IMG/VR virus record: IMGVR_UViG_3300020576_002679
DNA length: 64,000 bases
From: an uncultured virus (IMG/VR IMGVR_UViG_3300020576_002679)
Taxonomy: Duplodnaviria > Heunggongvirae > Uroviricota > Caudoviricetes
Direction: 5' to 3' (one strand)
The position numbers and the translations under genes are program-made. The notes under the pieces were generated by a model that saw only the letters and a program-made list of their open reading frames with translations, was not told the origin of the DNA and ran no database searches. Positions 1-47,502 of the stretch are shown one piece after another (the stretch's first letter is position 1; each line of letters starts with the position of its first letter).

Positions 1-3000
1 TTTTTATTTTTCCCCTTCATTTTAGAAACGATATCAGATATGTTTTGCGCCTTTTCTTCTCTAGTTAAGCCGGTGCGTTCATTAGCAGCATTGAAATAAC
101 CAACCAATCTATTTAGCTCATCCGCCTTTTTAACTGCCTCATCACTTCCCTCATGGAGCAAATCTTCAATAAGGTTTTGAACGGCAGTAACATAGTTATC
201 ATGAACCGACTTGCGCCTTTGCTCTTCCAATTTCTCCATTGCCTTGGTAAGCTCATTCACCCTTCCGCGTGACTCATAACTACCATCATCAATTTCATCA
301 ATCACCGCCTGCAAATCATCTATTTGCTCCTGAATAAAACCATTCACTCTATCAGGATCGTCAGGAATAAACGAAGCAAAGGACTGAGGAATAATAACTG
401 AATCCCAATCATTATAGGCAATCATGGCAAATAGCTTTCTTCTATTAGCTGCGTCACGTTGGTTAGCGGAAGGAACTAATAGTTTTGCCTGCGGATATAA
501 TGTACGGAACGCATCGGCAAACTGTCCGACTGTCGCATTCTGAACAATAACAATAGGTTTTTTAGCGCGGCCTAAACGTTTCATTTCCATAGCTGCCGTA
601 GCTATCGTATAAGTCTTTCCAGTACCTACCTGATGTGCCAGTAAAACCGAGTCCTGTAATATTCGGGTAACTGCCTTCTTTTGATGTAAACGAAGTTTAA
701 GAGGTCTGCCTTTCTTATCTATTACAGAAGCACCAGGGTAATGGTCGAATACCGGTAAAGAATATTTCTTCTCTACATATCCGTTATAGGTTTCGTTGTA
801 TATGCTGCCTATCTCATCATCAAACGTTCCTTTATCACGAACCCAATTCACGAAGTTATCCATAAGCTCCGCCTGCTTCGCCTGTGCCGCTGCAGTAGCA
901 TCCACATCTTTCACAGTTGTCTTACCTCCGTCCGCGTTCTTGATAGTTTTAGAAACAGTAGGAGTGCCTAGGTTAAGCGCTTTCTCTACCAATTCCCATC
1001 CACTAAAATCATTCGTACCCCACACAGCATTTTTGCCGTCCGACAAACCGCTAACCCCTTCGGCTATCCAAAGTCCAGTTTGCGAATTATAGAACATGCG
1101 CGCATTTACCCCTAGAGTTTCACCTACCCAACTCTCCATAATATGAGGCGGCATCCATGGTGTGCCTAGCTTGAATTTTATAAGCAACGGAGGAATATCG
1201 GCAGGTATTACCTTTTCTAGTTCCGTAACATTATTAGCATAAGCCGTGTTTGCCGCGGCTGCTGACTTCGCCATTTTTAATTTATCGCGCACAAACCCAC
1301 TGAGGTAACTGTCTTTATCTTCCAATAGCCCAGTTGCAGGATTTTCAAATGCCAGTCCTTCCGACAATAACTGAGCTTTCACCCTGTCTTCCGGCATATC
1401 GAGTAAGCGGGCGATGTATGGCAAGTCAATTTTGTTGCGATACGAACTACTTATAAGCATAGCATCTGCCGCGTCTGCCGCCTTTTCAGGCTCTACAATA
1501 GGATAGTTTACACGCTTCGTCAGAATTTGTGCCGGCACTATTTCCGCTACCCTTCGAAGTTTACCTCCTTCCGTATTCTCATACTTATAGTTAACGCTTT
1601 CAATAGCGGATATAGCATCAAACTCCACATCGTCCTCTAGGAACTTTACTTTATTGGCGCGTCCAGGCTTATTAAGTGTGCCGTAATTTTCGGTGAAGAT
1701 ACGGTAAGCCTTACGCAAATTACCGCGAAGTGCCTCTATATTCTCATCCGTAGACTCTTTACTAAGTTCAGCATCGAGTAACTTATTAAGAGAGTCCTTA
1801 ATATCAATATACTGTTTGGCGATAATAGAAGCAGGAACTTCCTTTTTACCGTATTTAATTTTATCCGCGCTCCATGTAACAGGGCGCAACTCATCCCCGA
1901 ATACCTGATATACCTGTCCGTCTTTAACCTTAAGCGTACCGGTTTTATCTCCTTTATCTGACAACACTACTTTGCGCTCTACATCGGCATCCGCACCAAA
2001 AATGTCTTGTGGAAGTTTAGATATTGCCTGCTGTAAAGCTAGTTGTGTATCTTGTCCTGATGGCGCTACAAGTGTTTGACTATCGCCACGGTAAAGCCCT
2101 CCGGTACCTGCTTCGGAAGCGAACTTCATTTCGCCTAACATCATTTCAGGATGATTAGCAAAGTATTCATTCACTTCAATATTCTTCTGCTTACCCTCAT
2201 ACTCTACTTCGCGTATTGGTTTGGTATAGCGGAACTCTTGCGATACGGCAGAAGGGATATCACCGGTCCGCTTTCTGAATACCAATATATCGGCTGTAAC
2301 TTCGGTGCCGGCATTTTCTTTAAACGCATTATTAGGAAGACGTATAGCGCCCACAAAATCTGCGTTACCTTCTTTATTAACCCACTCACGGAACTTCGCA
2401 CTTGCGCCATTATCCAAAGTAGAGGCAGAAGTAATGAACACTCCTATTCCACCAGGCTTAAGCATGAGAATGTTCTTCGCTATGAAATAATTGTGCAAAG
2501 AGAATTTAGAAAGCTCCGGGTATGATGAGTCATACGGTGCCATGCGGCCAAACGGAACATTGGTGATAGCAAGGTCCACACTGTTAGGGGATAGCTCAGA
2601 AAATTCAAAACCCTTCACCTTTATCTTTGCCTGCGGATAAAGTTTCTCAAATATTCTGCCTGTAATACCATCCAATTCAAAGCCAGTTAATCGGCTATTA
2701 CTGTGCATATCTACCGGCATCAATCCGAATATGTGACCTACCCCCGCGCTGCTTTCCAATACGTGACCGCCTTTAAACCCAAGTTTCCCCACTAAATCCC
2801 ATAAAGAAGATATTACCTCCCTAGGCGTATAGTGTGCCGATATTGTGCTGTTGATAGCCTCTGTCAATTCTTTTTCTGAAAGAAGTCCTGCAATTTCTTC
2901 ATGCAACTTTCCGTACTTCTTCATCCATCCCGCATCTTTCGATAAATATCTGTCACGGTTTAATACCTCTCCAAAACCACCGAAGCCCGTAAACTGTGCC

Positions 3001-6000
3001 AGTATATTTTTCTCTGCCGGTGTTGCATTGCGATTATCCGCCTCTAATTGGCGAAGCAATTTAATTGCATCTATGTTCGCATTTATACGGGCAGTTTCAC
3101 CTTTAGGAACTATAGTCTGCTGAGGTGTGATAACATGGTCAAGCTCATCTACTGCAAGCTGTTTAGAATCATCTGCCACTCCTTTTCGCTCGTCACTTCC
3201 GGTTCTCTGTTTTCCTCCGCTTCCGGTGCTAGGACGTTGGCCGTTACTATCTCCATCGCTTCCGATTCGTTTCGGTTTTGCGCCATCTCCATCTCCTTTA
3301 CCTTTAATGCCTTTTCCACTATCTCCGTCAGGTAAGTTTTCAACTGCCCCGTCTTCGCCAATTCCATTAACTTTTCCTTGTTCCATTCCGCCATCCACTC
3401 CAGGTGAACCTGTGCCTCCGGTGTCTGCCAAATCGGGATTTCCATTTTCTTTGATTTTGGTTAGTATATCTGCAGGCTGCATCTTTTTCAATGCCGCCAG
3501 TTCAGTCATTTTGTTTGTAATCTCATCGGGAGCAACTGCAAGAAACGCACCATAAGCCATCTTTATAGCATCAAAGTTACGCATGGCTCTGTCCTCTCCG
3601 AATCTGCCAACCATATAGGCTAGCATATCATCGAACTTATAAATAGCATTTTCCTTTGCCCCTGTCAGTGCCTTAATTAGCTTTTGCCCTGTGGCAATTT
3701 GCTCCGCCTTAATTTCGGGAACGCCATAAGGTGATTCGTCTTCGCCAACAGCATTAAAGCTATCTAGCTCATCGAAAATATCATCAATATCAGGCCCCTT
3801 TACTTCTTTGGTTTCAGGTTTTTTAGAAACTGGTGCGACTTTCTTTCCACCGTCTGCCGATCCTTTGGCGGGAGTTGGTTTCTTATCTTTTTGAGTAGCT
3901 GCGAGGAGCTCTGTTTCTCGTTTTGCGATTTCATTCGAAATTGATTTATCTTTTAATAATGCCTGAATTTTACCCTCTGCTATCTTTCTCCATTCTGCCA
4001 TTCGCTCCTGAAACGCTTGCGCCTCATCCACTTCTACTGAACTGAACATACCAGGGTTAGCGCGTTGTTGCTTATTATACGCACTTACATCATTAAGTCC
4101 GATAAGTGCAGCGCGCAGATTTTCTACCCCTACATTCTGCATAATGATGAGCATTTCTGCCGCCTCTGCCAATTCTGCTGATGATAATGACGATATGTCT
4201 TTATCTTCAAAAAAGTTCCCTTGATTAAGATAGAACGCAACCGACTTCAAACCTGCTAGGCTTGTTTTTGCCTGAAGCAATAAAGCATCGTTGATAGTTT
4301 TAATGAGTGCGGGGTTATTCTTCTTTATTTCAAAAAGAGGAACGAGCAGGCCGGAGGTAATGGTATTGTAAAGCGAAGTAACGCCCACCACGTCCTTATA
4401 CTGCAAAACTTTCTCATCAATAATTCCCGAGGCAAGTATGGTTTTAAAAAGCTCCTTACCTGTTTCCGTGAATACGCGCGCGCCCTCTCCCTTTGTCAGG
4501 AATAGCGATGGAACTTCTTTAATATCAATGATATCCGAAGCGATAAGATAGTCATAAAGAATTTTAGCAACCTTCGGGTTATTCCAAATCTCACTTAGCT
4601 TATCAGCGTCCGCCTCTTCTATGATACGCGCAAGTCTTTCCCGTTGCTCATCACTTATTTTCTCGCGCATGGTGCCTATCATTTCTTTTGCACTCTTAGT
4701 TTTACCTACTGCGCGAGGATTGTATTTACTCATTTCGGAAGTAGAGTATTCTACCGGCTCTTCGATTACCCGGACAAACACAGGGTTTTTCATTCCCAAT
4801 AAAGCCATGCTGTCTAATCCATAACGGGACCCCTTTTTTGCAAGGTCCGATTCATACTGTGACTGCTTTCCATCTTCTTTCTTCACGGCACCGCTACCAT
4901 GTTTCAGGGCGCGAACAAACGCCATTACCCGCTCATTACCTGATAATACTACATACTTTCCTAAGTCAGCATCCCATGTTACTACCGGACTACCTTCCGC
5001 AACACCAGGGTTATCGGATATACCGCGAGTATCATATTGCTTTTCAGTTGTCAGAACGTTTGCCTGATTTTCCTTTAGCGAATAATCACGGTCATTTTTA
5101 GTAGGGAAATCTTTACTCTCATTGAAAGTAAATGGATCATGCGAAGTCAATAGCTCATCTGCTTCAACTGCCGCAAAACGAGCTTTCTTTTGGGTATTGT
5201 CCGCCAGTCTTACTTCTGCCTCCCCTCCTGATACTTCTGTAGGCGATGCAGTTTTAGAAACATTTTTAGCCGGCTCATCTTCTTTGCCAAAATCAAGTAT
5301 TGCAGATTCAATTACCTGACTGAGAGGAATATCCCAATTCTTTGCCGCCTTATTGGTAATACGGTCCATTACATTCTGTGCAATCTTTATCGTATCGCCA
5401 TCGGTAAGAGGAACATCTAAATTACCCGCTGCCTTGAATACAACATCTTTCAACTGCCGCATATCTTCGTTCTGACGTGCCTTAGTTGCTTTCTCAATAC
5501 CTGATATCTTTAACTCATTCTCTCGAATTTGAGTAGTAATAGCTTTCTTTTCGGAAGTAGATGCACCTTTAAGTTTCCCGCGTAACTGATTATTCTCACT
5601 TACAAGCGGATCTGTTTGCTCCGTACCTTCGAACTCCGCATCTGAATAGCGCATGTGTAAATCAACAACCGGCTTATCTAGTTCATTCGCGTAGTCAATA
5701 ATTGGCTTAGGCTTTTCAGGTTCTACCTTTTTCTCCTCTTTCTTTTCAGCAACCGGTTCAGGCTTTTTTTCTTCGGCAGGTGCTTTCTCCAAATCAGCTA
5801 GCACTTTCTTTTTGAACTCACTGATTTTAGCCTGTTTCTTATCAGGTTCTTTAATACGGAGGATATCAAGTAATTCACCGCGTAGCTCATCACTTCCCTC
5901 CACCGCCTTTTTTAATTTCTGTTCCTGTTCAGGAGTAAACTCATCCACCGGCATTTCTTTTGCACGGTCAGCAGCAGGTTTATAGTTCGCGTACAATTCC

Positions 6001-8942
6001 TTAATCTCTGCTGTCTTCGCCTCAATTTGTTCCTGTAAATGCTCCGCAATGGCTTTACGTTCAGGGGCAGGCTTTTCAGATGGTATACTATTTAAATCAT
6101 CCTGTAACTGCTGAATCTGTTGTGATATAATAGAAGCCTGTGCAGCAATAGCGCCCTTGTTTTGGAGCACATCATCAATCATTTTGTAATATTCTTCCCG
6201 CTGCGGCTGTGTTAATGTTTCATCATCACGTATTGCCGCAATATACTTCTCCGGGTCCTGAGCAATAGCAACACCTTCCCGATTGATATTGATAACCTGT
6301 TGAATGAATTGCGCGCTTACCCGTTGCGCCTGTGCCACTTCCGGGTTTTGTTCTTTAGCTGCCGATGTAATTAAATCTTCTGCCGCTTCGCCTGCTTCAG
6401 CTAGATTCTCATTAGTCATTGACTCTCTAGCAGTTTCACGGCTCATCTGCCAAAACGTTCTAGACGTATTAGAGGCATCCTTGTTATAGTTGAAACCGTA
6501 AATATCCTTTAGTGATTTTGCGCTGATAACATGAGCAATCTTTTCAGCCAGGGTAACGCGGAACTTTCCACCTCCCTCCACCGGTATATCTGCTGTTTTA
6601 CCTGTACCTAAATCATTTGCCACTGCGGGTTTACCTGTTGTAGGTTTTAAAATCTCCCCTTTCTGTGTATCAATTAACTTCGCCAGTAATAACGCCCGCT
6701 GACGGCTATTCATTTTACCTAGAACATCAAGTAACCGGGTATTGCCATCGCCAAAAATATCTTTTAGCTTTTCGTTCCATTGCGCTTCATCTGCTCCAAT
6801 GGAATTGCCGGCACTTTTGGCGCGAATGAAATCAACATAGTTGTCTTTCATTATTGCCTGAATTTCCATAAGCTCTGCAGGTGTAGCTTCGATAGAAAGC
6901 CCGTCACTTACAAAATCTTTTAAACCGGTTGCATCCTTTTTAAGTTGATACTTATTTAGAACTCTTCCGAAATCAAATACATCTTTCAGGGCAGAAGGGT
7001 TACCTCTATATGCCTCTGTAGCAATATCCTGTAATGGACGAGGCTGTGAGTTTTCAAAGTCCGCTGCGTTCTTATCTGCTTCCTGTTTGTTGAGTTTTAG
7101 GAAATCAAATTCCTCTCCCTTCATTATATCGTTACTTTCAAAGAAGTCACGCTTAAACTCATCGGGGATTTGCTCTAGCGTATTCTGCCTGAACTCATCT
7201 ATCTTCTCAATACGGTCCGCTTCCGATGGCATTTGCTGAATCTTTTCTAGTTCGGCTACCAGTTCAGGGCGCGTTTGTAAATAGGCATCAAACAAAGGAC
7301 CTTCCACGGCTTTCTCAGGAGCTTTCATAGCCGCACTCCAAAAATCTTTAACGGCACCAACACGCTCTTTTGTTTTTGGTCCGCCTCCCGTTGCCTCTCC
7401 CTGTAAACTCATAGCCGTACCTAAAAGGAACGATGCTACTACGTCCTTATCATTTATAGTTCCGTTCTGAATTTTCTGCTTAACTGCATCATACCCGGCA
7501 AACACACCACCACTTAATGCTGCGCGAGTAGCCATATTGCTTCCGTAACGCATAGCCCCTAAGTTGAGAGTATGAAGTATAGCACCCTCTCCCGCACCAA
7601 TGGCACCACCTTTTAGTAGCTCTCCATACGCACCCGCCTTTAAGTCCATTGGCAATTCTTCATAAGGCTTGCTAAATTCCTCTGCAAGTTTATCAGCGCG
7701 CGCATTAAATTTATCCAGGGCAGTTGAATAGGCCATGTAAGTAACGAACTTAGGTATAGCCAAACCCTTAACTTTCATTTCAGGAGTAAGCATTAACTCT
7801 GTAAACATTGGCACCATGCCTCCAGTACTCTCGCTTAACTTAGTAGCTACTGTTTCAACATCATCATTTAGATTAATGTTAGCTTCAACCTGACCTTTCA
7901 ATTTATCAGCTAGTCTTCCGAAGATACCGGAAGGAGTAGTGTTTGTTACATCACCGATGATTTTACTTAACCCATCCATCTGCTTCAGAACATTTGCCTG
8001 ACCCATCACTACACCTCTTTCGAACGAACGCCCAACACTTTTCAAATTCTCTGTAAGGCTTTTTCCCTTATCATACCAGTAATTGTTTTCTCCGTAAAAC
8101 TGATTTGCACCTTGCAATTCTGCTACATCGGACTTTAATTGCTGATTAAGAGCAGTGTATTGTTCAAAGAGTTTAGTTGCTACTTTCTGACGTTGATCTA
8201 TAACGCCTCTAGGGATAGTTGTTTTTTCAAACAATTCCTTGTATTCCTTTTCATCCGCAGCGGTTATTTTATCCTGTGGTAATGCGCTGAGTTGTTGCAT
8301 GCGCTCCATTTGCTTTGACATTTCAGGGAATGTAGTTTTTACATTCTCTAAATCAGCGGAAGCAGACTCTATAGCCGCGGCAAGCGTTTCCATTTTAGCC
8401 GATTGGTCAGCTACACTTTGCGCTTTGACTTCTGAATATTCTTTTACTTTTTGTAGAGTAGCGGAGGAAGGTTTCTCATCTGCTTTCTCGTAATACTTCA
8501 TTGCTTTGTTGAAGTCGAGATTATCTAGTTGGCCTTTCTCTAACTTATCTGCCTCAATCTTAAACTCGTCTTTTTCAACTGGCTTAGTAACAGGTTCAAC
8601 CTTTGCCACGGGCGGAACTTGTTTAAGAGTTTCAGGAATACCGTTAGTGACCTCCGTATTTGTTGAGGGCTGTGTGGAGTTGGTTGTAGCAGGAGCGGAG
8701 GAATTGTCGGAAGCGGGCTGTATATCCTTTTTTTTTTCCGGCTCTTGAAAATATCCATTGTAGGCATCGTAAGCACCAAACTCTTTTTCACCACCGAAAT
8801 TATCGTAAATACTTTTACGGTACCCGCCATCATTAAGCATAGTCTTTTCAAACTCTCCATAATCCCATCCGCGAGATTCCCCGCCAATGGTTTCATATAT
8901 CTGCTTTACTGCGTCTGTCTTTGGGTTCTTTATTGTTGCCAT
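1..8942 (-). CDS. Giant DarB-like polyvalent internal virion protein (ParB-like domain + N6-adenine methyltransferase + SNF2 helicase), truncated by window edge
   Basis: Hand translation from ATG 8942 (MATIKNPKTDAVKQ), overlapping the upstream gene end, stays open to position 3 (...KMKGKNK); frame matches at both ends. Motifs: LLTSHDPFTF...NDRDY...SGNERV (ParB-like, ~4.7-5.2 kb); NIDAIKLL, FTGFGG, HYTP, ESSAGVG, ELD, NVPF (MTase, ~2.3-3.1 kb); HQVGTGKT Walker A (~0.62 kb). Absent from the ORF track because there is no stop in the window. Confidence 0.9.
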   Translation of the reverse strand, partial: MATIKNPKTDAVKQIYETIGGESRGWDYGEFEKTMLNDGGYRKSIYDNFGGEKEFGAYDAYNGYFQEPEKKKDIQPASDNSSAPATTNSTQPSTNTEVTNGIPETLKQVPPVAKVEPVTKPVEKDEFKIEADKLEKGQLDNLDFNKAMKYYEKADEKPSSATLQKVKEYSEVKAQSVADQSAKMETLAAAIESASADLENVKTTFPEMSKQMERMQQLSALPQDKITAADEKEYKELFEKTTIPRGVIDQRQKVATKLFEQYTALNQQLKSDVAELQGANQFYGENNYWYDKGKSLTENLKSVGRSFERGVVMGQANVLKQMDGLSKIIGDVTNTTPSGIFGRLADKLKGQVEANINLNDDVETVATKLSESTGGMVPMFTELMLTPEMKVKGLAIPKFVTYMAYSTALDKFNARADKLAEEFSKPYEELPMDLKAGAYGELLKGGAIGAGEGAILHTLNLGAMRYGSNMATRAALSGGVFAGYDAVKQKIQNGTINDKDVVASFLLGTAMSLQGEATGGGPKTKERVGAVKDFWSAAMKAPEKAVEGPLFDAYLQTRPELVAELEKIQQMPSEADRIEKIDEFRQNTLEQIPDEFKRDFFESNDIMKGEEFDFLKLNKQEADKNAADFENSQPRPLQDIATEAYRGNPSALKDVFDFGRVLNKYQLKKDATGLKDFVSDGLSIEATPAELMEIQAIMKDNYVDFIRAKSAGNSIGADEAQWNEKLKDIFGDGNTRLLDVLGKMNSRQRALLLAKLIDTQKGEILKPTTGKPAVANDLGTGKTADIPVEGGGKFRVTLAEKIAHVISAKSLKDIYGFNYNKDASNTSRTFWQMSRETARESMTNENLAEAGEAAEDLITSAAKEQNPEVAQAQRVSAQFIQQVININREGVAIAQDPEKYIAAIRDDETLTQPQREEYYKMIDDVLQNKGAIAAQASIISQQIQQLQDDLNSIPSEKPAPERKAIAEHLQEQIEAKTAEIKELYANYKPAADRAKEMPVDEFTPEQEQKLKKAVEGSDELRGELLDILRIKEPDKKQAKISEFKKKVLADLEKAPAEEKKPEPVAEKKEEKKVEPEKPKPIIDYANELDKPVVDLHMRYSDAEFEGTEQTDPLVSENNQLRGKLKGASTSEKKAITTQIRENELKISGIEKATKARQNEDMRQLKDVVFKAAGNLDVPLTDGDTIKIAQNVMDRITNKAAKNWDIPLSQVIESAILDFGKEDEPAKNVSKTASPTEVSGGEAEVRLADNTQKKARFAAVEADELLTSHDPFTFNESKDFPTKNDRDYSLKENQANVLTTEKQYDTRGISDNPGVAEGSPVVTWDADLGKYVVLSGNERVMAFVRALKHGSGAVKKEDGKQSQYESDLAKKGSRYGLDSMALLGMKNPVFVRVIEEPVEYSTSEMSKYNPRAVGKTKSAKEMIGTMREKISDEQRERLARIIEEADADKLSEIWNNPKVAKILYDYLIASDIIDIKEVPSLFLTKGEGARVFTETGKELFKTILASGIIDEKVLQYKDVVGVTSLYNTITSGLLVPLFEIKKNNPALIKTINDALLLQAKTSLAGLKSVAFYLNQGNFFEDKDISSLSSAELAEAAEMLIIMQNVGVENLRAALIGLNDVSAYNKQQRANPGMFSSVEVDEAQAFQERMAEWRKIAEGKIQALLKDKSISNEIAKRETELLAATQKDKKPTPAKGSADGGKKVAPVSKKPETKEVKGPDIDDIFDELDSFNAVGEDESPYGVPEIKAEQIATGQKLIKALTGAKENAIYKFDDMLAYMVGRFGEDRAMRNFDAIKMAYGAFLAVAPDEITNKMTELAALKKMQPADILTKIKENGNPDLADTGGTGSPGVDGGMEQGKVNGIGEDGAVENLPDGDSGKGIKGKGDGDGAKPKRIGSDGDSNGQRPSTGSGGKQRTGSDERKGVADDSKQLAVDELDHVITPQQTIVPKGETARINANIDAIKLLRQLEADNRNATPAEKNILAQFTGFGGFGEVLNRDRYLSKDAGWMKKYGKLHEEIAGLLSEKELTEAINSTISAHYTPREVISSLWDLVGKLGFKGGHVLESSAGVGHIFGLMPVDMHSNSRLTGFELDGITGRIFEKLYPQAKIKVKGFEFSELSPNSVDLAITNVPFGRMAPYDSSYPELSKFSLHNYFIAKNILMLKPGGIGVFITSASTLDNGASAKFREWVNKEGNADFVGAIRLPNNAFKENAGTEVTADILVFRKRTGDIPSAVSQEFRYTKPIREVEYEGKQKNIEVNEYFANHPEMMLGEMKFASEAGTGGLYRGDSQTLVAPSGQDTQLALQQAISKLPQDIFGADADVERKVVLSDKGDKTGTLKVKDGQVYQVFGDELRPVTWSADKIKYGKKEVPASIIAKQYIDIKDSLNKLLDAELSKESTDENIEALRGNLRKAYRIFTENYGTLNKPGRANKVKFLEDDVEFDAISAIESVNYKYENTEGGKLRRVAEIVPAQILTKRVNYPIVEPEKAADAADAMLISSSYRNKIDLPYIARLLDMPEDRVKAQLLSEGLAFENPATGLLEDKDSYLSGFVRDKLKMAKSAAAANTAYANNVTELEKVIPADIPPLLIKFKLGTPWMPPHIMESWVGETLGVNARMFYNSQTGLWIAEGVSGLSDGKNAVWGTNDFSGWELVEKALNLGTPTVSKTIKNADGGKTTVKDVDATAAAQAKQAELMDNFVNWVRDKGTFDDEIGSIYNETYNGYVEKKYSLPVFDHYPGASVIDKKGRPLKLRLHQKKAVTRILQDSVLLAHQVGTGKTYTIATAAMEMKRLGRAKKPIVIVQNATVGQFADAFRTLYPQAKLLVPSANQRDAANRRKLFAMIAYNDWDSVIIPQSFASFIPDDPDRVNGFIQEQIDDLQAVIDEIDDGSYESRGRVNELTKAMEKLEEQRRKSVHDNYVTAVQNLIEDLLHEGSDEAVKKADELNRLVGYFNAANERTGLTREEKAQNISDIVSKMKGKNK
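3149..3445 (-). CDS. Nested +1-frame gene, TnpV-like small helical protein (98 aa)
   Basis: HLEWMAEWNKEKLMELAKTGQLKTYLTEIVEKA...EAMEIV resembles the TnpV-family pattern. A-rich start context (ACCAAAATCAAAGAAAATG). The host frame here is a G/D/R/S-rich linker. Confidence 0.6.
   Translation of the reverse strand: MEIPIWQTPEAQVHLEWMAEWNKEKLMELAKTGQLKTYLTEIVEKALKVKEMEMAQNRNESEAMEIVTANVLAPEAEENREPEVTSEKEWQMILNSLQ
3800..3934 (-). CDS. Possible second nested +1-frame microprotein (44 aa)
   Basis: MKSQNEKQSSSQLLKKIRNQLPPKDRQTVERKSHQFLKNLKPKK*, hand translated; lies in a linker of the giant gene. Confidence 0.3.
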   Translation of the reverse strand: MKSQNEKQSSSQLLKKIRNQLPPKDRQTVERKSHQFLKNLKPKK

Positions 8943-25893: not shown

Positions 25894-28287
25894 TTAAACA
25901 ATATTTTGATTTTCCAAACTTACAGCATGAGCAGTTTCATCTTTCGCCAGTTTACTCTTCCCTGCGTCCTGCCCTGCCTGTATCAATCCAGTTGCTTGTA
26001 GTTTGCGAATATCCTCATTGGTTTTATGCGTGTATTGCTCATTCTTAGCTTTAGTATCGGCAGCCAGGTCCGCATTTTTCAATTCAGATTTTGTCTTCTC
26101 AACCTGTGAAAGATTTTCCGCATTTTGTTTACTAATGAGAGCGCTTTCTTCCTGTGCCTTGCGCTTGAATCTGCGTATGCGTTGGTTGAGTATCATTTCA
26201 ATCAACTTCAAATCTGTATCATTTGAAAGGAGTCTTACAATTTCAAGATAGTCTGCAAACTCAATACCTCCCTTAGTAGGGTCCTGAGAACTCTGCAGCG
26301 CTGTTTTAGCCGCTTCCAGTATTCTAGCTTTACTTTCCTGTGTAGGACGAGCAACAAAGCGGGTATTGAAAATATATTGCTCACTGTCTTCCAGTCCGAT
26401 AACAATATTCTGCACTCCCATTTGACCTAGCACCGGAACAAACGTGGTGAAGTTGCCAGTGTACTTAACTATCATTTGAATTTTCAAAAGAACGTCCTTC
26501 ATGGTAATTTCTTCCAATGCAAGCGCGCCTGATATCATAGGCCATATAGCATTATTGGCACTTTCAAATGCCTGTTGTTGAACGCCAACAAGCAAGTCTG
26601 TTTGAGGCGCTGCACCCGAAGCCATAATTTCATTTATGCCGGTTACTTCACGAATCATATTGATATCGTTCATTAACGACTGTGTAAGTTCGGCAAATTC
26701 TCTACCGAGGCCGCCCTTTGTTTCTGTTACCGGTGGACCGCTATTATCAATGCCGTCATCGTCCTGTGTGGAATTTCTTCGATAAACAATAATACCAGTC
26801 TGTGTAGCAATTTCTAAAAGCTCCTTAGCTGTCATTTTCTTTCCATCGAGAAAGACATTTTCAAACGCGCCAATCTCTACCATGATACCCTTCGGCATCG
26901 CGCGCGCTTTAAGATTTTGAATACGCAGCCAGGTAAGCTGAATACTGTCCGCGAAGGTAATTGCTCTTTCTAGCGGTGACTTATTAGATACCCGGTAAAA
27001 CTTATAACGCTTGTAACACTGCTGAGGGTTCAATACTTCCCGCGAAATATTTTTAAGCAATCCATAATCGTAGATGAAGTTTGTATTAATTACCCACTTA
27101 CCAGTATAAACCGTAGCGATATCTTTGCACTTTACTTCTTTACTGTAAATACTTCCATCGTCACGCACAGCCTTAGTCTTACCTACGGGCTCATTGAAAT
27201 CTCTCTTGTAAGTATTAGTAGCTCCGTACTTATCATTATCCTCAAACTTGTAACGGTCTACGCTATCGTAGTCCATATCCATCACGTAAACTTCACACAT
27301 ATCATACTCTCTGTATTTAATGTATTGAAGGTCCGTATTCACATAATCATTCCATGGCAACATTTGCAACGGGTTATTAAAGTAACCCACAAACGCCATT
27401 GCCATTTCGTAATATTCCTGTTCTGTAAATTGATCGCCCGCCTCTAGCTTTAACTGCCCGATAGTCAATTTACGAATCTCACCAATGCGCGTCATTTTCC
27501 CTCCATCATGGCCGCGGAAATCCATAAGTATCTGATTGATTGGATCTGTAGCCCGCATGTAAGGCTTCTTTGCCTTGCGGTCAATATCTACACAAGTACC
27601 GGCACAGCCTAAATCAAATATATTTTCACGAATAAGTTTTTGAGATTCTTTCCACCGGCTATCATATTGCACTCCCATTATAGCCATTTCATATAGCGCT
27701 TCGGAGGCAAGCCGGAAGTTATTTGTCATGTAGAGGTCGAGCTCCTCTTTTGTTTCCGGTAGAAATTCCTCCTGCGAGTTTAAATCAATGCCTGACTTTT
27801 CGCTCATTTCTTTGAAGAACTTAGCCAGTAACATTTCTCCTTCCAGGCGGGCGCGTTCACTTTTTCTTTCCTGACTTGCAGTCGGGTTAATGGCATCTAC
27901 CATTACCGTGTATTGCATCTTCTCCCAATGCGATAAAACTACATCACGAAACTTCGGGATGATAGAAACAATACTCCAATCTAAGTCAAGATAACTAACC
28001 GGACGGTTCTGAGCATTTTTCAGCTTGGTCATCCACTTTATATACTTGGAGGTAGATTGATTGCCATCCGCATACATTCTGTTTTCTATCCAGTCTTGAC
28101 GCTTACCGTAGTTAAACATTCCGCCACTTAGCTTGTGGACGTTGTAGGCCGCTTTAAAATACCGTAGCTGATACTCCCGTGTTTTTTTGACTTCGGGATC
28201 AACTAGGTCAGATGGAAAACGCGCCATTTCGTCCGATGAAGGGAGGTCACTTCGTCCGCTAGCGGATGATGATTTTGTTTCTGCCAT
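25894..28287 (-). CDS. Portal protein
   Basis: 797 aa; RMYADGNQS..KY, SYLDLDWSIVSIIPKF, ATQTGIIVYR and INMIREVTGINE motifs of crAss-like portals. Confidence 0.85.
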   Translation of the reverse strand: MAETKSSSASGRSDLPSSDEMARFPSDLVDPEVKKTREYQLRYFKAAYNVHKLSGGMFNYGKRQDWIENRMYADGNQSTSKYIKWMTKLKNAQNRPVSYLDLDWSIVSIIPKFRDVVLSHWEKMQYTVMVDAINPTASQERKSERARLEGEMLLAKFFKEMSEKSGIDLNSQEEFLPETKEELDLYMTNNFRLASEALYEMAIMGVQYDSRWKESQKLIRENIFDLGCAGTCVDIDRKAKKPYMRATDPINQILMDFRGHDGGKMTRIGEIRKLTIGQLKLEAGDQFTEQEYYEMAMAFVGYFNNPLQMLPWNDYVNTDLQYIKYREYDMCEVYVMDMDYDSVDRYKFEDNDKYGATNTYKRDFNEPVGKTKAVRDDGSIYSKEVKCKDIATVYTGKWVINTNFIYDYGLLKNISREVLNPQQCYKRYKFYRVSNKSPLERAITFADSIQLTWLRIQNLKARAMPKGIMVEIGAFENVFLDGKKMTAKELLEIATQTGIIVYRRNSTQDDDGIDNSGPPVTETKGGLGREFAELTQSLMNDINMIREVTGINEIMASGAAPQTDLLVGVQQQAFESANNAIWPMISGALALEEITMKDVLLKIQMIVKYTGNFTTFVPVLGQMGVQNIVIGLEDSEQYIFNTRFVARPTQESKARILEAAKTALQSSQDPTKGGIEFADYLEIVRLLSNDTDLKLIEMILNQRIRRFKRKAQEESALISKQNAENLSQVEKTKSELKNADLAADTKAKNEQYTHKTNEDIRKLQATGLIQAGQDAGKSKLAKDETAHAVSLENQNIV

Positions 28288-28743: not shown

Positions 28744-28860
28744 TTACTCAGTTGTATAAAAGAAAAGTCCATCACCTACCTCCGCCTCTTGAAGCGCTAG
28801 CATTATTTCATAATACTTATCAAGGTCAACTACAAACAATATTTTTTCTTCCTCTGCCAT
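28744..28860 (-). CDS. Small hypothetical protein (38 aa)
   Basis: MAEEEKILFVVDLDKYYEIMLALQEAEVGDGLFFYTTE*; TGATG coupling to terL; fills the gap exactly. Confidence 0.55.
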   Translation of the reverse strand: MAEEEKILFVVDLDKYYEIMLALQEAEVGDGLFFYTTE

Positions 28861-31055
28861 CAATATTCTCTTAAGTCCCACAACATACCTTCGTGATTTT
28901 CGGGTTCCGGGTTTGCCTGCTTCTTCCGCATTGCTCCGCCCTTGCTTCCATAAATAGCATATCCACCGGCTACAAAATAATCGAAAGGGTTCCAGTTTCC
29001 ATACTCAACGTCTTTGCAGTCTTGTAGAAATTCAGAAAACACACACCTGCGCGCGGAAGTTTCTATGTAAGTTCCTACCAAACCGAATACCGGTTCTTTG
29101 ATGGCATCGCCTAGCGTTGTCATGCCCGGTGTTTTTGATTCTTCAATTTTTACACCGCTGCCTTTCTTCTTCTTCTTTACAATATTACGGTATTTCAGGA
29201 AGTGATGATAGCCGCGTTCTGTAATGTAATCCCATAAAGAAGCTACGTTAATTTCGGGGAATATCGGCATCCCTAGAAAGTGACAGGACATAATCATATC
29301 TTCACCGTAACGCCTTTTATCCTGAAAGCGCCAACCATACTGCATTATATAATCATCGGTGAGATAATCTTCTTCATCGCGCCCCTCTTCTACTTCCAGT
29401 ATCAGGTTCATAAACGCCATGGCAGTTCCTAGACTTCGCCTGTCTGAGTTAGTAGCGTTGTATTTGTATGGATCGGCACCGATAGTTCCTGCATGTTTAT
29501 TACCAGGTGCAGGGCATCCATCGGAGGAATGTTTAAATACATTATTAGAAGTATCTATAAGATACTCAATCAATGCGCGCTTAAATAGCCATCGCCCATT
29601 TTCGCACTCCGTGAATATTACTTTAGTGTCCTTTTCATTATTCTCCCATGCAAGGTTTCCAACAACAACATCGTCATTGCCGTAAAGGAAATCATCTAAC
29701 CGCTCATCAATCTTTAGCATGTTAAACTCACAGTCTTTCGGATTAGTACGAAGTGCTTCGCGTATGGTCCGCGGGTACATGTGAATAATCTTCTGCCGTT
29801 CAATAGGATCGGTTTCAGCATTAATTTCTATATCCACCATTTCTGCACCTCCCTTATCAAAATGCCGGTCACCTTTTGACTTTAGCCATTCCATTTGATA
29901 CGGCAGCGGGTCATTAATAATAGAGGCACCGAACTGATCGAATTTGTATGTTTCAGGTGCACCTTTAAAGAAACGAACGAGGCCGCTCTTAGTTTGACCT
30001 AATGCCGTGAGCTTAGTCGGGTCATGGTCCGATTGGTTCCACACCTTTTTAAACTCAATGAGTCCACCCTTAGTAGTTTCCTCAATAGTAGTAGTAAGCA
30101 GCGCCTTTCCAACTACCCGATCACGCACACGCAAACATTGTTTGTGAACGCGCCATGCTTGACTGATAAGCATTTCCTCTGTCTTACCGCACTCATCGTC
30201 AAAATAAAAACCTAGCTTCTGTCCGTCAAACGCAGTGTGCACGGTTGAACGCGCTTCGATAGAAGAGTGCAACTCATCACTCGTAAGCTCTGCCAGTGTA
30301 TCATCCTCATCAAATTCTATTTCGGAATCACTATCACGGAACTTTATTTCCTTAACCGGATATGTTTTGTTATCATACTTAGGGGAGAAGTAGAAGGGTA
30401 ATTTTCTCCATGGCAATACTACTACACGCTGAAACAAATCTTTTGCATCATCGTTTGTTTTTGACTGCATACCTACGTGATAATTCAGTTCCGAAGTAGC
30501 ATTAAACAAACAGCTATTGCCGCCACGGTAAGACTTACCGTCACGCCTCATAGTCATTTCGATACCGCCATATACCCAAGGTTCCTTCTCTACTACTTCT
30601 TCCCACCAGTAGTAATATTCGGCATCTATGAAACGGAAGTCGGGCAAACCATCATCCAGGTAGTAGTAGTTACAATAGTGCCAGTGCTTCGGTGTGATGT
30701 AAACCGGTTTACCATAAATGTAAATCCAAAACCCGTTATTTTTTTTCTCCCACTGCGAAGCAACAAAGCTCTCATAGTCCTTATTCCGCCTTACAATATC
30801 TAGCACCTCGATACGCCCTGATATCCCCTCCTTACCTTTCTTCTGTGCGGTGCGTGTCATTTTCCAAACCCAATTCGGAACAATCTCCCGCTGAAAAAAC
30901 TGCTTCTCTACCGGCAGGCCAAAGTTGGCAATCTTCTCAGGGTGCGGAGGTTCAGGAAGAGTTACCTTGTATGGAGTAATACCATCAATGTTCTTTCGGA
31001 GAGTTATATTTCTTTCCGGGTCCTGATATTTCGTGTATTTTGGGTTAATCAGCAT
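28860..31055 (-). CDS. terL: Terminase large subunit
   Basis: RRDGKS Walker A, FYFDDECGK Walker B, GADPY nuclease, FPEIN and FDYFVAGG; crAss-like type. Confidence 0.9.
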   Translation of the reverse strand: MLINPKYTKYQDPERNITLRKNIDGITPYKVTLPEPPHPEKIANFGLPVEKQFFQREIVPNWVWKMTRTAQKKGKEGISGRIEVLDIVRRNKDYESFVASQWEKKNNGFWIYIYGKPVYITPKHWHYCNYYYLDDGLPDFRFIDAEYYYWWEEVVEKEPWVYGGIEMTMRRDGKSYRGGNSCLFNATSELNYHVGMQSKTNDDAKDLFQRVVVLPWRKLPFYFSPKYDNKTYPVKEIKFRDSDSEIEFDEDDTLAELTSDELHSSIEARSTVHTAFDGQKLGFYFDDECGKTEEMLISQAWRVHKQCLRVRDRVVGKALLTTTIEETTKGGLIEFKKVWNQSDHDPTKLTALGQTKSGLVRFFKGAPETYKFDQFGASIINDPLPYQMEWLKSKGDRHFDKGGAEMVDIEINAETDPIERQKIIHMYPRTIREALRTNPKDCEFNMLKIDERLDDFLYGNDDVVVGNLAWENNEKDTKVIFTECENGRWLFKRALIEYLIDTSNNVFKHSSDGCPAPGNKHAGTIGADPYKYNATNSDRRSLGTAMAFMNLILEVEEGRDEEDYLTDDYIMQYGWRFQDKRRYGEDMIMSCHFLGMPIFPEINVASLWDYITERGYHHFLKYRNIVKKKKKGSGVKIEESKTPGMTTLGDAIKEPVFGLVGTYIETSARRCVFSEFLQDCKDVEYGNWNPFDYFVAGGYAIYGSKGGAMRKKQANPEPENHEGMLWDLREY

Positions 31056-39317: not shown

Positions 39318-39694
39318 AAGTTTACGAATACCATAAGTTCAGGAAGGTGTTACCAAACTACGAGATTGAGTATGATTTCTCAGGCGTAGAAATTGGTGAT
39401 GCAGTTTCCTTTGCCGGCAGTGCGTTATTCGGATCGGGTAAAGTTGTCGAAACAATGTGGCACGGCATGTATTCCGCAGCAGTCTACAAACACGCCATGA
39501 AACTAGGCGATGGCAGTGGTCCCGCAGTTTATTCTGTCCTGCAAGCAGCTATTCCATACGTGCTAGTAGTATTCGCAGAATCCCGCCCGGAAGAAGTTCA
39601 TGGCCTTCGTAGGTTTGACCTAGAAGCACATGAACATAACTTTGCTCGTAATGAAACAATTCCATTCAGAATAAGCCAAATGATAACGCCATGA
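39314..39694 (+). CDS. Hypothetical protein
   Basis: Start MKVYEY at 39314; ATGA overlaps on both sides. Confidence 0.6.
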   Translation: MKVYEYHKFRKVLPNYEIEYDFSGVEIGDAVSFAGSALFGSGKVVETMWHGMYSAAVYKHAMKLGDGSGPAVYSVLQAAIPYVLVVFAESRPEEVHGLRRFDLEAHEHNFARNETIPFRISQMITP

Positions 39695-40452
39695 AAAAGC
39701 CTATAATAGCGGTGTGGTTTTCTTGTGGGGCAGCTTCCGCTGTGGCAGCGTATTTAACGATACAGCAATACCAATCCACGCATGAAATTTTAATTTTTAA
39801 TACTCCGGTAGGAGAAGAGCATCCCGATAACCTAAGATTCAAAAAGGACGTTGAGAAATGGCTAGGCTACCCGATTATAGAAGCCATTAACTCAGACCTG
39901 CAAAGTAATTCAGCGGAAGATATTTGGAAGGAAAGAAAGTATATGGCAGGTGTCAAAGGAGCGCCCTGCACAATGCTATTGAAGAAGGAAGCGCGCTATC
40001 AGGCGGAGGTAAAGTATAATATTGCTTGGCATGTCCTAGGCTTCACTTCGGATGAAAAAAACAGGAGTGATCGCTTTATAAAATTTGAAAGGGAAAACAC
40101 AATCCCGGTTCTGATCAATTCCGGCATGACAAAAAAAGACTGTTTTACTTTCCTAGAAGAACAGGAAATAATACTACCCGAAATATACAAAGTCCTTGAT
40201 AATGCTAATTGTATTGGCTGTGTAAAATCCACTGGAATTGATTACTGGCAAAGAATTAGAAAACATTTTCCTGATGTTTTTGACCGTAGAGCAAAATTAT
40301 CAAGAGAGATAAATTGCAAGTTGATTAGATACAAAGGGAAGCGAATATTTCTTGATGAACTTCCTATAGATGCAGTAGGTAGACGAGGCCATGCGCGCCC
40401 TGAGTGTAGTATTTTTTGCAACAATCCATTAGTAAATAATAAGCCGCTATGA
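39691..40452 (+). CDS. PAPS-reductase-family (adenine nucleotide alpha-hydrolase) protein
   Basis: WFSCGAASAVA PP-loop variant, EHPDNLRF, APCT..LKK, NANCIGCVK, ECSIFC. Confidence 0.75.
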   Translation: MKKPIIAVWFSCGAASAVAAYLTIQQYQSTHEILIFNTPVGEEHPDNLRFKKDVEKWLGYPIIEAINSDLQSNSAEDIWKERKYMAGVKGAPCTMLLKKEARYQAEVKYNIAWHVLGFTSDEKNRSDRFIKFERENTIPVLINSGMTKKDCFTFLEEQEIILPEIYKVLDNANCIGCVKSTGIDYWQRIRKHFPDVFDRRAKLSREINCKLIRYKGKRIFLDELPIDAVGRRGHARPECSIFCNNPLVNNKPL

Positions 40453-41129
40453 AATACGTCAGCTACCTCCGCGTAAGCACTCAAAAGCAGGGGAATTCAG
40501 GCTTAGGACTGGACTCGCAGCGGGATATTATCCACTCGTACATAGCCCGCATGGTTGGTGCAGAATTGATTTCGGAACATATCGAAGTGGAAACCGGCAC
40601 CGCCAAAAAGGAGCGCGTAATCATCCACCAGGCGCTTGCCGAATGTAAACGCACAGGCGCAATTTTGATCGTTGCAAAGCTAGACCGGTTGGCGCGGGAC
40701 GTTCGATTTGTCCTGTCTGTCCTCGACTCAGGAGCGGAGATTGTCTTCTGTGACTTCCCTTCCGGTAATCGCCTGATGATAACCATCATTAGCGCTATCG
40801 CTGAATACGAAGCCCGGTTGATATCGGAACGAACGAAAGCAGCCCTGAATGAAAAGAAGAAGGTAATGAAGCTAGGAAACCCGAATATTCTTACCGCGCA
40901 GATTTCAGGAACCCGCGCAGCGGCAAAGGCTAGGACAGGCGCAATGACCCCAAACAGGAAGAACATGAGCACTATCAAGATGCTCCGCCAGTCAGGTCAC
41001 ACACTACAGGAAATAGCCGATACGCTTAATTCATCGGGGGAGCTTACATCTACCGGGTGCAATTTCACGTCAGGAAGTATTTATAATATTCTAACACGGG
41101 AGAAAAAAAACGAGGAAGCTGCCGTATGA
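40449..41129 (+). CDS. Serine recombinase (resolvase family)
   Basis: YLRVSTQKQ, LIVAKLDRLAR, ISERTKAAL, C-terminal HTH. Confidence 0.92.
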   Translation: MKYVSYLRVSTQKQGNSGLGLDSQRDIIHSYIARMVGAELISEHIEVETGTAKKERVIIHQALAECKRTGAILIVAKLDRLARDVRFVLSVLDSGAEIVFCDFPSGNRLMITIISAIAEYEARLISERTKAALNEKKKVMKLGNPNILTAQISGTRAAAKARTGAMTPNRKNMSTIKMLRQSGHTLQEIADTLNSSGELTSTGCNFTSGSIYNILTREKKNEEAAV

Positions 41130-46415: not shown

Positions 46416-47294
46416 ATGAGCCAAAAGCAAACAGTAATTGATTTTCTTTCCTCCGCCTCTACGCCAAAGAGCATAGAGGAAGTGCATGTAACCACTGGAA
46501 TACTTCGCCCGAATGTAAGACGGATATTAGGGCAGGGAGAGAAAGAAGGAACATTCACCCGAACTGCCAAAGGAGTATACACGGTAACTAGCGATGATGG
46601 AAAGGTGACAGCCTACATAGATTGCGCTGAAGCGGAAAAATCATTACCCGGACTCGTTGAACAGGGCATGAAGTTCAATATGATATTTCTCGACAGCCCG
46701 TATTTCTCCAAAGCTCTCGTAGGCGGGAACAGGGGCATCAAAGAGTATACATTCATCACCCCCGAGCAATTCAGGACGGTATGCGAGTGCGTAACCAAGC
46801 TACTGGCGGACGAGAATAGCCATGTGTATGTAATGCTGTCAGGCGCACCAACAGCACAGGCGGACATGGCACGCTATGTAAATGCGGTAACCGGTGCAGG
46901 CTTGAAACTAGTGAAAGAGGGAGGCTACACGAAAACCTTTGCCGATGGCAAGCCCGTTACTAATGTGAGAGGCGAAACAGCGAAGCCCGAGCGCCTGATG
47001 CTATTCACCCTGTCAGGACAGCCACAAGACGTATGTATCAACTTTGTATCAAAGCGCCCGAAAGGTTACGCTACCGAGAAAGCGAAGGACTTTATCCGCT
47101 CCCTGATAGAGCAGTCAACCAAAGTAGGTGACATGGTTGGTGATTTCTTCGGAGGCAGCGGAGTAACAGCAGAGCAGTCCATCATCATAGGGCGGTCAGT
47201 TTACATTATTGAGAAGTCAATCGAAACAGTAACGAATTACATCAAGCCCCGTGTAGAGGGCGCATTTCTTATTTATAACTTCCTAAACAGCTAA
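46416..47294 (+). CDS. N4/N6 DNA methyltransferase (beta order) with N-terminal winged HTH
   Basis: IFLDSPY (motif IV) precedes TEK and GDFFGGSG (motif I); N-terminal RPNVRRILG..FTRTAKGVY. Confidence 0.85.
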   Translation: MSQKQTVIDFLSSASTPKSIEEVHVTTGILRPNVRRILGQGEKEGTFTRTAKGVYTVTSDDGKVTAYIDCAEAEKSLPGLVEQGMKFNMIFLDSPYFSKALVGGNRGIKEYTFITPEQFRTVCECVTKLLADENSHVYVMLSGAPTAQADMARYVNAVTGAGLKLVKEGGYTKTFADGKPVTNVRGETAKPERLMLFTLSGQPQDVCINFVSKRPKGYATEKAKDFIRSLIEQSTKVGDMVGDFFGGSGVTAEQSIIIGRSVYIIEKSIETVTNYIKPRVEGAFLIYNFLNS

Positions 47295-47502
47295 TTATGG
47301 TAATACTATCCACAGGAGGAGGACAAACCTTTAATAACCTTCACAACATGCGTTGGAACATGCCGCGCAAGATTGCACTAAAGAACCTGCAAACCACAAA
47401 TGCTATTATGATGACAGAGTATCATATGGTGTATGCTAACAGCGTTGACAGGACAAAAGAGGCTACTAAAACCGTTTATATCAGATTTTCAAACAACTAA
47501 CC

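Follow-up and report, generated by a model that had tools for sequence, protein, structure and literature searches.

A giant DarB-like polyvalent gene of tailed phages with a putative overprinted TnpV-like gene in its +1 frame

The window analysed here is a 64,000-nucleotide stretch of DNA from an uncultured virus (IMG/VR record IMGVR_UViG_3300020576_002679; Caudoviricetes), which carries on its minus strand a giant gene for a DarB-like polyvalent protein. Embedded in this gene is an open reading frame (ORF) of 98 codons, which very probably is a genuine overprinted protein-coding gene, with a TnpV-superfamily-like product (P0001) made by internal initiation at the ATG at 3445. The features of the locus are listed below, the reading frame of the giant gene being called frame 0.

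3149..3445, minus strand: embedded +1-frame gene with product P0001, recognised from its ORF and frame, 16 relatives, profile matches in the +1 frame and an AlphaFold model
3446..3465, minus strand: A-rich leader directly 5' of the internal ATG, with 13 A in 20 bases, holding a +1-frame stop (TAA, 3461-3463)
3..8942, minus strand: giant DarB-like polyvalent gene (host frame, frame 0), recognised from phrog_10089 and Pfam domains
4764..5198, minus strand: ddrB-like ParB domain of the giant protein, residues 1249-1393 (PF18763, expectation value (E) 1.2e-11, 45 bits against a cut-off of 27.6)
3453..3710, minus strand: conserved helical domain of the giant protein, residues ~1745-1830, just upstream of the linker, a block kept in homologues
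3150..3446, minus strand: frame-0 linker, residues ~1833-1931, G/D/S/K/R-rich and hydrophobic-poor, recognised from sequence and composition
1962..3137, minus strand: N6-adenine methyltransferase domain, residues ~1936-2327 (phrog_1685 over 1936-2327, phrog_11801 over 1950-2233, Eco57I over 2118-2187)
3..701, minus strand: start of a SNF2/ResIII-type helicase, residue 2748 onward, cut by the window end (ResIII 2748-2821, DEAD 2753-2908)

The giant gene has 2980 codons inside the window, and its 3' end runs past the window edge. A PHROG scan matched its product to phrog_10089 ('DarB-like antirestriction') with an E of 1.4e-276, and Pfam domains of the ddrB-ParB, Eco57I-type methylase and ResIII/DEAD helicase types were found. 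The protein has the arrangement that marks DarB-like polyvalent proteins, with an N6-adenine methyltransferase followed by a SNF2/ResIII helicase in one polypeptide, plus further conflict-type domains. Its relatives in a collection of 5.8 billion proteins are polyvalent proteins of 1800-5200 amino acids (aa), with at most 49% identity in full-coverage alignments.

The embedded ORF runs from the ATG at 3445-3443 to the stop TAG at 3151-3149. Its start lies at offset 5497 of the giant gene, and since 5497 mod 3 = 1 it occupies the +1 frame of the same strand; the T of its ATG is at the same time the third base of a frame-0 Asn codon. A first-pass annotation, made from the letters of the DNA, had described a 98-codon same-strand +1 ORF here, which is present as described; the strand (minus), which it had not given, is established by our analysis. 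The overlap spans the 100 codons that write the linker of the giant protein just before its methyltransferase-helicase module, and the methyltransferase domain begins right after the stop of the embedded gene. The linker, which lies between the conserved helical domain and the methyltransferase domain, is the G/D/R/S-rich string that had been remarked on over the same bases. It contains 12 Leu, Ile, Val or Met in 99 residues, compared with 22% gene-wide, and 20 homologues of the giant protein have a poorly conserved, low-complexity linker at the same site.

Both frames are open across the whole overlap beyond what would be expected by chance from the protein of the other frame. When the giant protein was held fixed and its codons were redrawn from the usage of the gene, the +1 frame was open over the 98 codons in 0.8% of 2000 trials, and a +1 ATG ORF of at least 98 codons appeared anywhere in the giant gene in 6% of them. 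When the 98-aa protein was held fixed instead, frame 0 was open in 0/20000 trials, indicating that codon choice is constrained from both sides. A +1 stop requires an NTA or NTG codon in frame 0, that is Leu, Ile, Val or Met, so that a linker poor in hydrophobic residues tends to leave the +1 frame open.

Other long open frames occur in the giant gene. Two antisense ORFs lie over the same stretch on the plus strand, at 3127-3555 (142 aa) and 3048-3335 (95 aa), in open frames of 143 and 95 codons; the 142-aa ORF had no Pfam match, and both are probably a side effect of the exclusion of stops from two sense frames here. A low-complexity region near the 5' end of the giant gene has a still longer open +1 run, of 121 codons, where an ORF at 8540-8896 (minus strand) starts with ATG and encodes a basic, proline-rich sequence of 118 aa; no Pfam match and no family were found for it, and it looks like a compositional by-product. 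Because of these frames openness alone is unconvincing, and the case for the embedded gene is carried by its conservation and by the pattern of selection.

A phmmer search of 1.84 billion representative proteins recovered 16 relatives of P0001 at E<=1e-3 (best 2.2e-8). A profile made from these 16 library proteins only, with the window sequence excluded, was run on the six frames of homologous giant-gene DNA. In the pooled search (85 loci, 454 kb, cut-off E<=0.01), 35 loci were matched, 29 of them distinct, and all 35 matches fell in the +1 frame relative to the methyltransferase, with none in the other five frames. By origin, the matched loci were 12/24 from IMG/VR, 5/6 from GenBank phages, 12/42 from metagenomes and 6/13 from genomes, the last including Odoribacter laneus, Dysgonomonas termitidis and Spirosoma fluviale. 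The matches lie around the start of the methyltransferase match, and the ORF is free of internal stops in all 35 loci, whereas the first-pass annotation had named +1 stops in related phages as a sign against the gene.

Searches of separate sets gave the same frame. Matches were found in 16/24 IMG/VR loci (E 4e-30 to 3e-3), all in +1 and each within an open frame 0, and in 6/6 GenBank phages, again all in +1 (Klebsiella phage SopranoGao, Agrobacterium phage Atu_ph08, Pseudomonas phage Itty13, Sinorhizobium phage PBC5, Erwinia phage Pavtok and Vibrio phage VvAW1). In a further small search, Ochrobactrum phage POI1126 and Microcystis phage Mwe-JY07 were both matched in +1. Cultured carriers among the loci matched in the pooled search include phages of Klebsiella, Erwinia, Vibrio, Agrobacterium and Sinorhizobium. 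Frame 0 is open over every tabulated matched ORF except in PBC5, where it opens within the +1 ORF. In the negative control, 50 kb of phage P1 DNA that takes in darB and ulx, no match was better than E 1.9. The protein read in +1 has therefore been kept in the same frame in homologous genes, together with an open frame 0.

The loci left unmatched are mostly of two kinds, encoding either proteins that start just before the methyltransferase or proteins with other upstream parts or linkers. Seven unmatched IMG/VR loci were examined, and their +1 runs over the linkers were open for 102-157 codons. A divergent subfamily of embedded +1 ORFs was observed in Ralstonia phages, Burkholderia (Bcep22-like) phages and some IMG/VR loci (L022-L024, L087, L088, L092-L095). 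It is barely detected by the profile (E 0.003-0.1 for the Ralstonia and Burkholderia Bcep22-like phages) and has a motif of its own, around Lys-Ala-Pro plus a Gly-x-Leu-x-x-Tyr/Phe-Leu segment. On a metagenome contig (L057, 273-647), an iterated profile gave a weak TnpV-like +1 match (E 3.8e-3) about 1.9 kb upstream of the methyltransferase match; this ORF is embedded in an open giant frame, has an N-terminus closer to classical TnpV, and may represent a second position or type of overprint.

The frame under selection was assessed in three sets of close relatives with unambiguous DNA alignment, which replaced a comparison of distant loci. In the distant loci, an alignment guided by the +1 protein had given 32% identity in +1 and 19% in frame 0 (top 8), and this approach was dropped as circular, since its outcome is set by the guiding protein. 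The counts of synonymous/non-synonymous changes in the three sets were as follows.

Five gut-metagenome loci, 1-6% apart, overlap: 13 variable sites, 9 of them on +1 third positions; +1 frame 9/4, frame 0 2/11
The same five loci, flank (methyltransferase): 73 sites; frame 0 27/46, +1 view 8/65
Klebsiella phages SopranoGao and LASTA, 3.4% apart, overlap: 13 sites; +1 frame 9/4, frame 0 2/11
The same pair, flank (methyltransferase): 31/33 differences on frame-0 third positions; frame 0 29/4, +1 frame 0/33
Five Ralstonia phages, overlap: 23 sites; +1 frame 10/13, frame 0 4/19
The same five phages, flank (methyltransferase): frame 0 40/19, +1 frame 8/52

The enrichment of +1-synonymous changes in the overlap was supported by Fisher tests in the gut (p 2.5e-5), Klebsiella (p 6.5e-7) and Ralstonia (p 6e-3) sets, and in the Klebsiella pair all four +1 non-synonymous changes fall in the C-terminal tail. 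The periodicity of substitutions jumps from frame 0 to +1 exactly over the embedded ORF, which is the signature of a +1 coding sequence. The +1 frame of the overlap is thus under purifying selection, which acts mainly on the small protein, with frame 0 being kept open and hydrophobic-poor. The per-frame comparison of selection suggested in the first-pass annotation therefore favours the +1 frame in all three sets, and its core reading, a TnpV-like gene overprinted in +1 just before the methyltransferase-helicase module with both frames kept, is supported.

Within the lineage of the window itself, a strain diverged by 5.3% was found as contigs in public runs labelled as freshwater and seawater metagenomes, with 107 differences in 2001 bases (2300-4300) and two 1-base indels near 4215-4218. 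Among the 40 differences listed of these 107 (2349-3159, methyltransferase part), 37 are on frame-0 third positions. Pieces from one run had 4 differences in 3149-3270 (122 nt), compared with 14 in 2923-3159, which are too few for use.

Nine of the 16 library proteins have lengths of 89-118 aa and can be aligned with P0001 from the initial Met nearly up to the stop, with a clear common hydrophobic pattern. The first-pass annotation had allowed that the ORF might prove to lack homologues, and these proteins show that homologues exist; its comparison with the TnpV family held in part. One relative, P0135, passes the Pfam TnpV profile (PF14198) with 31 bits against a gathering threshold of 27, and eight more of the 16 reach it below threshold (12.7-23.4 bits); among the embedded ORFs found in related loci, 8/13 do so too, likewise below threshold (13-25.5 bits). 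P0001 matches P0135 with an E of 2.2e-4 in the 1.84-billion library and 38% identity over residues 1-78, and so is tied by sequence to a member that passes the Pfam threshold while lying below that threshold itself. The TnpV resemblance is real through these relatives and distant for P0001, and the embedded-protein family forms a distant branch of the TnpV superfamily in which P0001 does not itself qualify by the Pfam threshold. No significant match to P0001 came from Pfam or PHROG, no GenBank phage was matched by blastn of the region or by tblastn of P0001, and a related-locus search of IMG/VR with a single protein found no relative. In the library proteins P0125 and P0131 the domain is found in frame, as a fusion; the idea that P0136 carries the upstream helical domain was dropped for want of BLASTP support. 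In the ESM Atlas, the clusters at 0.90-0.92 had no name and one at 0.83 contained TnpV, which are taken as leads only.

P0001 is predicted to be an acidic five-helix protein of 98 aa and ~11 kDa. The AlphaFold2 model, built with a 19-sequence alignment, is a compact set of five helices without strands, with a mean predicted local distance difference test score (pLDDT) of 94.4 and a predicted template modelling score (pTM) of 0.84. Its size and all-helical model fit the description of TnpV, for which the Pfam profile has 111 positions. The strand-free model of P0001 differs from a winged-helix excisionase. No solved structure was a convincing match. Foldseek found no match in the PDB at E<=0.001. 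Against BFVD, the sole notable row was a 1093-residue piece (E 0.02), which by its length might be half of PBC5 orf33 (2185 aa). With VIA-align, the best row was 2apl_A (PG0816 of Porphyromonas gingivalis; Z 6.6, root-mean-square deviation 1.9 Å over 61 residues), the next row being at 4.4; this similarity is below the level that would mean more than a common helical arrangement. The only match of the family profile among PDB sequences, to a nematode ABA-1 repeat (E 1.3e-3), covered a short motif and was taken as coincidental.

The embedded gene has initiation-type signals of its own, an A-rich leader in the window and Shine-Dalgarno-like motifs in relatives. The 13 A in the 20 bases before the internal ATG are reached by 0.1% of the 1211 internal ATGs of window genes, so that the A-rich start context remarked on earlier is real; the 56 gene starts of the window have a mean of 8.6 A in 20 bases, and a Shine-Dalgarno-like motif at 1/56. 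In the proteobacterial and cyanobacterial phages, GGAG, GAGG or AGGA was found at -14..-7 in 8/8, PBC5 included, against a local background of 8-18% per locus. An ATG stands at the family N-terminus in 12 of the 14 distinct ORFs examined, that of the window included, and this Met is also the first residue of the short library relatives. Ahead of the ATG, the +1 frame has a stop at a distance of 3-8 codons in 8 of those 12 ORFs, and of only 2 codons in 2/6 GenBank phages. In the window, the +1 frame is closed by the TAA five codons before the ATG, and only short A-runs (AAAA) lie between, no dedicated search for slippery sites or stimulatory structures having been made. The upstream +1 stops, the conserved ATG and the start motifs together favour independent internal initiation of the embedded gene.

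Several observations weigh against the embedded gene being a coding TnpV-like gene. P0001 itself did not match PF14198 even at E<=10, and the overlap gives it a biased composition (20% Glu, 7% Met, 4% Trp and no Asp). Its library relatives are mostly on contigs of 1-3 kb without visible context. No profile match was found in 50/85 homologous loci, indicating that the embedded gene is a feature of a subset and not of all DarB-like genes. The selection data are uneven, since the Ralstonia set has only a moderate +1 synonymous excess (10/13), the differences listed for the window's own strain pair cover the methyltransferase part only, with none from the overlap among them, and the +1 identity advantage in distant loci is removed when the alignment is guided by frame 0. 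Finally, translation is inferred from the sequence, and the public runs are assembled contigs, unable to show expression.

The simplest alternative is that the ORF is compositional and makes no protein, the linker having too few Leu, Ile, Val and Met codons to give +1 stops. The low content of these residues in the linker fits this explanation, as do the open antisense frames, the 121-codon +1 run without a family in the N-terminal low-complexity part, and the richness of P0001 in Glu, Met and Trp, which off-frame reading of a G/D-rich code would give. It is nevertheless extremely unlikely, since with an independent profile one and the same family was recovered from 35/85 loci (E to 1e-30), always in this frame and never in another, the loci not being near-duplicates (29 distinct sequences, from hosts of several phyla); in addition, most substitutions in the overlap are synonymous when read in +1 but non-synonymous when read in frame 0, the fold is predicted with confidence, the start signals are conserved, and so few codon redraws of the giant protein leave the frame open. 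Alternatively, the ORF could be the decaying relic of a tnpV-bearing integrative element, inserted in a giant SNF2/methylase gene, read through off-frame and now without function. Integrative mobilisable elements carrying TnpV are described as inserting site-specifically in snf2 of Streptococcus suis conjugative elements (PMC9815147), and TnpV genes as typical of mobilisable transposons with serine recombinases (PMC3158075). Such insertions hint at how a tnpV gene might first have ended up inside such a gene, and leave its long-term conservation unexplained. An intact ORF, start codon, initiation signals and synonymous bias have been kept across Bacteroidota-type, proteobacterial and cyanobacterial phages, there are no +1 stops or frameshifts in the 35/35 matched loci, and no recombinase or repeat remnants were seen beside the embedded gene, though none were searched for. 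As an account of present non-function the relic is contradicted by these data, and taken as a whole it is very unlikely; as an origin story it is possible.

A more serious alternative concerns how the segment is expressed, and holds that it is the C-terminal domain of a truncated N-terminal giant protein, reached by a +1 shift just before 3445 or, equivalently, that two ancestral overlapping genes are joined by a -1 shift. The annotated orf33 of Sinorhizobium phage PBC5 ends with the domain, read in frame, and the methyltransferase frame is open there from 570 nt ahead of the orf33 stop. The last ~100 profile positions of PHROG 938 are the TnpV-like domain, and in P0125 and P0131 the domain is in frame after a segment weakly matching the upstream helical domain (for P0125, profile match with E 0.022). 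The A-runs between the +1 stop and the ATG of the window would also suit a shift. However, the +1 stops upstream of the ATG (3-8 codons in 8/12 ORFs, 2 codons in 2/6 GenBank phages) leave almost no room for one, while the ATG at the family N-terminus, the Met shared with short relatives and the Shine-Dalgarno-like motif in 8/8 phages point to a start at this site, and PBC5 has retained both the Met and the motif. Frame 0 is moreover continuous across the overlap in every tabulated matched locus but PBC5, whose close relative Atu_ph08 has one continuous gene, so that PBC5 may carry an indel or a sequencing error; an indel where both frames are open is as good an explanation of its layout as a real two-gene or frameshift arrangement. 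Production by frameshifting is therefore unlikely, although it is more plausible than a chance frame or a relic, and independent initiation at the ATG at 3445 is the favoured route.

Among 15 GenBank phage records examined, only the giant coding sequence (CDS) or its split pieces were found, and the embedded gene was annotated in none. The giant gene of PBC5 (AF448724.1; L028, 1-2136) is annotated as two, orf33 and orf23, and the PHROG 938 'endolysin' inherits its TnpV-like domain from the PBC5-type in-frame layout. In Pseudomonas phage Itty13 (MW460249.1, L027), with 68% G+C, the CDSs over the DarB-like region are annotated opposite to the strand of the protein match, and the giant gene may therefore be annotated on the wrong strand.

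Under the reading favoured here, the embedded gene is co-transcribed, and probably co-translated, with the giant protein. Ribosomes would start independently at the internal ATG at 3445 on the mRNA of the giant gene, guided in the window phage by an A-rich leader without a Shine-Dalgarno motif and in its proteobacterial relatives by such a motif. Ribosomes translating the giant gene would read the same bases one position earlier, giving a hydrophobic-poor, probably disordered tether that joins the N-terminal modules to the methyltransferase-helicase module. The small protein may act as a partner of the giant protein, either as a helper in folding or packaging or as a check on the methyltransferase-helicase module. 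This role is suggested by its fixed site at the N-terminal border of the module, by the rare in-frame fusions to the upstream part and by the presence of giant homologues in virions, such as gp69 of Burkholderia phage JC1, found to be virion-associated by mass spectrometry (PMC9144972). When the small protein and the upstream helical domain were co-folded, the score was 0.01, which is evidence neither way.

A broader proposal can be put forward tentatively, as a possibility that falls somewhat short of even chances. The same bases would hold a widespread and ancient dual coding, for a folded TnpV-like partner and for the tether of a giant injected anti-restriction protein. The partner might, for example, hold or release the methyltransferase-helicase module during packaging or after injection, the shared mRNA would set the ratio of the two products, and the tether would go back to the fusion of two adjacent genes by out-of-frame reading through the small gene.

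The arrangement has partial parallels in known systems. In phage lambda and its relatives, the whole of Rz1 is contained in the +1 frame of Rz (PMC9409062, PMC9144972); here too, a larger phage gene encloses a smaller one on the same strand that has a start of its own, the two products being thought to share one process. In Rz/Rz1, however, both frames give specific functional polypeptides of modest size, whereas in the window the host frame gives only a low-complexity tether in a protein of more than 2980 aa, the embedded frame carries a folded and probably older family, and the pair has been kept across phages of several bacterial phyla while going unannotated in the GenBank records examined. 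The TnpV proteins of Tn4451/Tn4453-type mobilisable transposons (PF14198) are similar in length (~100-120 aa), share the same core (profile positions ~20-85) and are predicted to be all-helical. Their genes are described as free-standing beside a large serine recombinase, with an excisionase-like action postulated and not shown (PMC3158075), while the gene studied here is overprinted inside a gene of the phage virion module, 37 kb from the serine recombinase-like gene of the window (40449-41129).

The DarB/Ulx pair of phage P1 also has a methyltransferase-helicase anti-restriction protein encoded beside a small accessory gene, but darB starts at the methyltransferase, without such a linker, and ulx lies downstream of darB and does not overlap it. 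The small protein was considered as a counterpart of Ulx, and this was dropped given the position of ulx and the negative profile search of P1. The ParB-like, N6-methylase and SNF2-type helicase architecture of the host gene is that of the polyvalent proteins (Iyer et al. 2017, PMC5512222); a second reading frame is outside the concept as described there, and a term search of the main text of that paper gave 0 occurrences of TnpV, frameshift, overlapping or linker. In the P/C genes of paramyxoviruses (PMC3934983), the same bases are likewise read in two frames, one product being ordered and the other biased and probably disordered, but these are small RNA viruses in which the new frame is a new protein, while here, in phages with double-stranded DNA, the biased frame supplies a linker to a giant protein that already existed.

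The rest of the window is a tailed-phage segment, with genes for the large terminase (28860-31055) and portal (25894-28287), for virion structural proteins, a tail fibre and an endolysin, and also for a DnaB-type helicase and several DNA methyltransferases. The giant gene is placed at the end of the structural module. Besides it, at least three further DNA methyltransferase genes were observed, along with genes resembling those of a PAPS reductase and a serine recombinase/invertase (39691-41129, 46416-49809, 54399-55133), suggesting a heavy investment in DNA modification.

No account of this embedded gene was found in the literature searched, subscription-journal papers and supplements being outside the search; in the consulted parts of PMC9144972 and PMC9409062, only spanins were mentioned as embedded genes. 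Embedded phage genes are themselves known, and the distinctive point here is that a giant protein takes one of its inter-domain linkers from the second frame of a gene for a folded protein, in phages of several phyla. Giant DarB-like polyvalent genes, whose share of a phage genome can reach a fifth (22.1% in Burkholderia phage JC1; PMC9144972), are each regarded as one gene, and a clade of them, carried by phages of Bacteroidota-type, proteobacterial and cyanobacterial hosts, very probably hides a second conserved gene under selection. This would add a missing component to a major counter-defence system of phages. It would also provide a clean natural case of overprinting in which the second frame gives an inter-domain linker, bearing on the origin of fusions and of disordered linkers, and it suggests that gene callers and proteomics databases that forbid embedded genes overlook real proteins. 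The proposal is directly testable in cultured phages, for one of which virion proteomics data exist.

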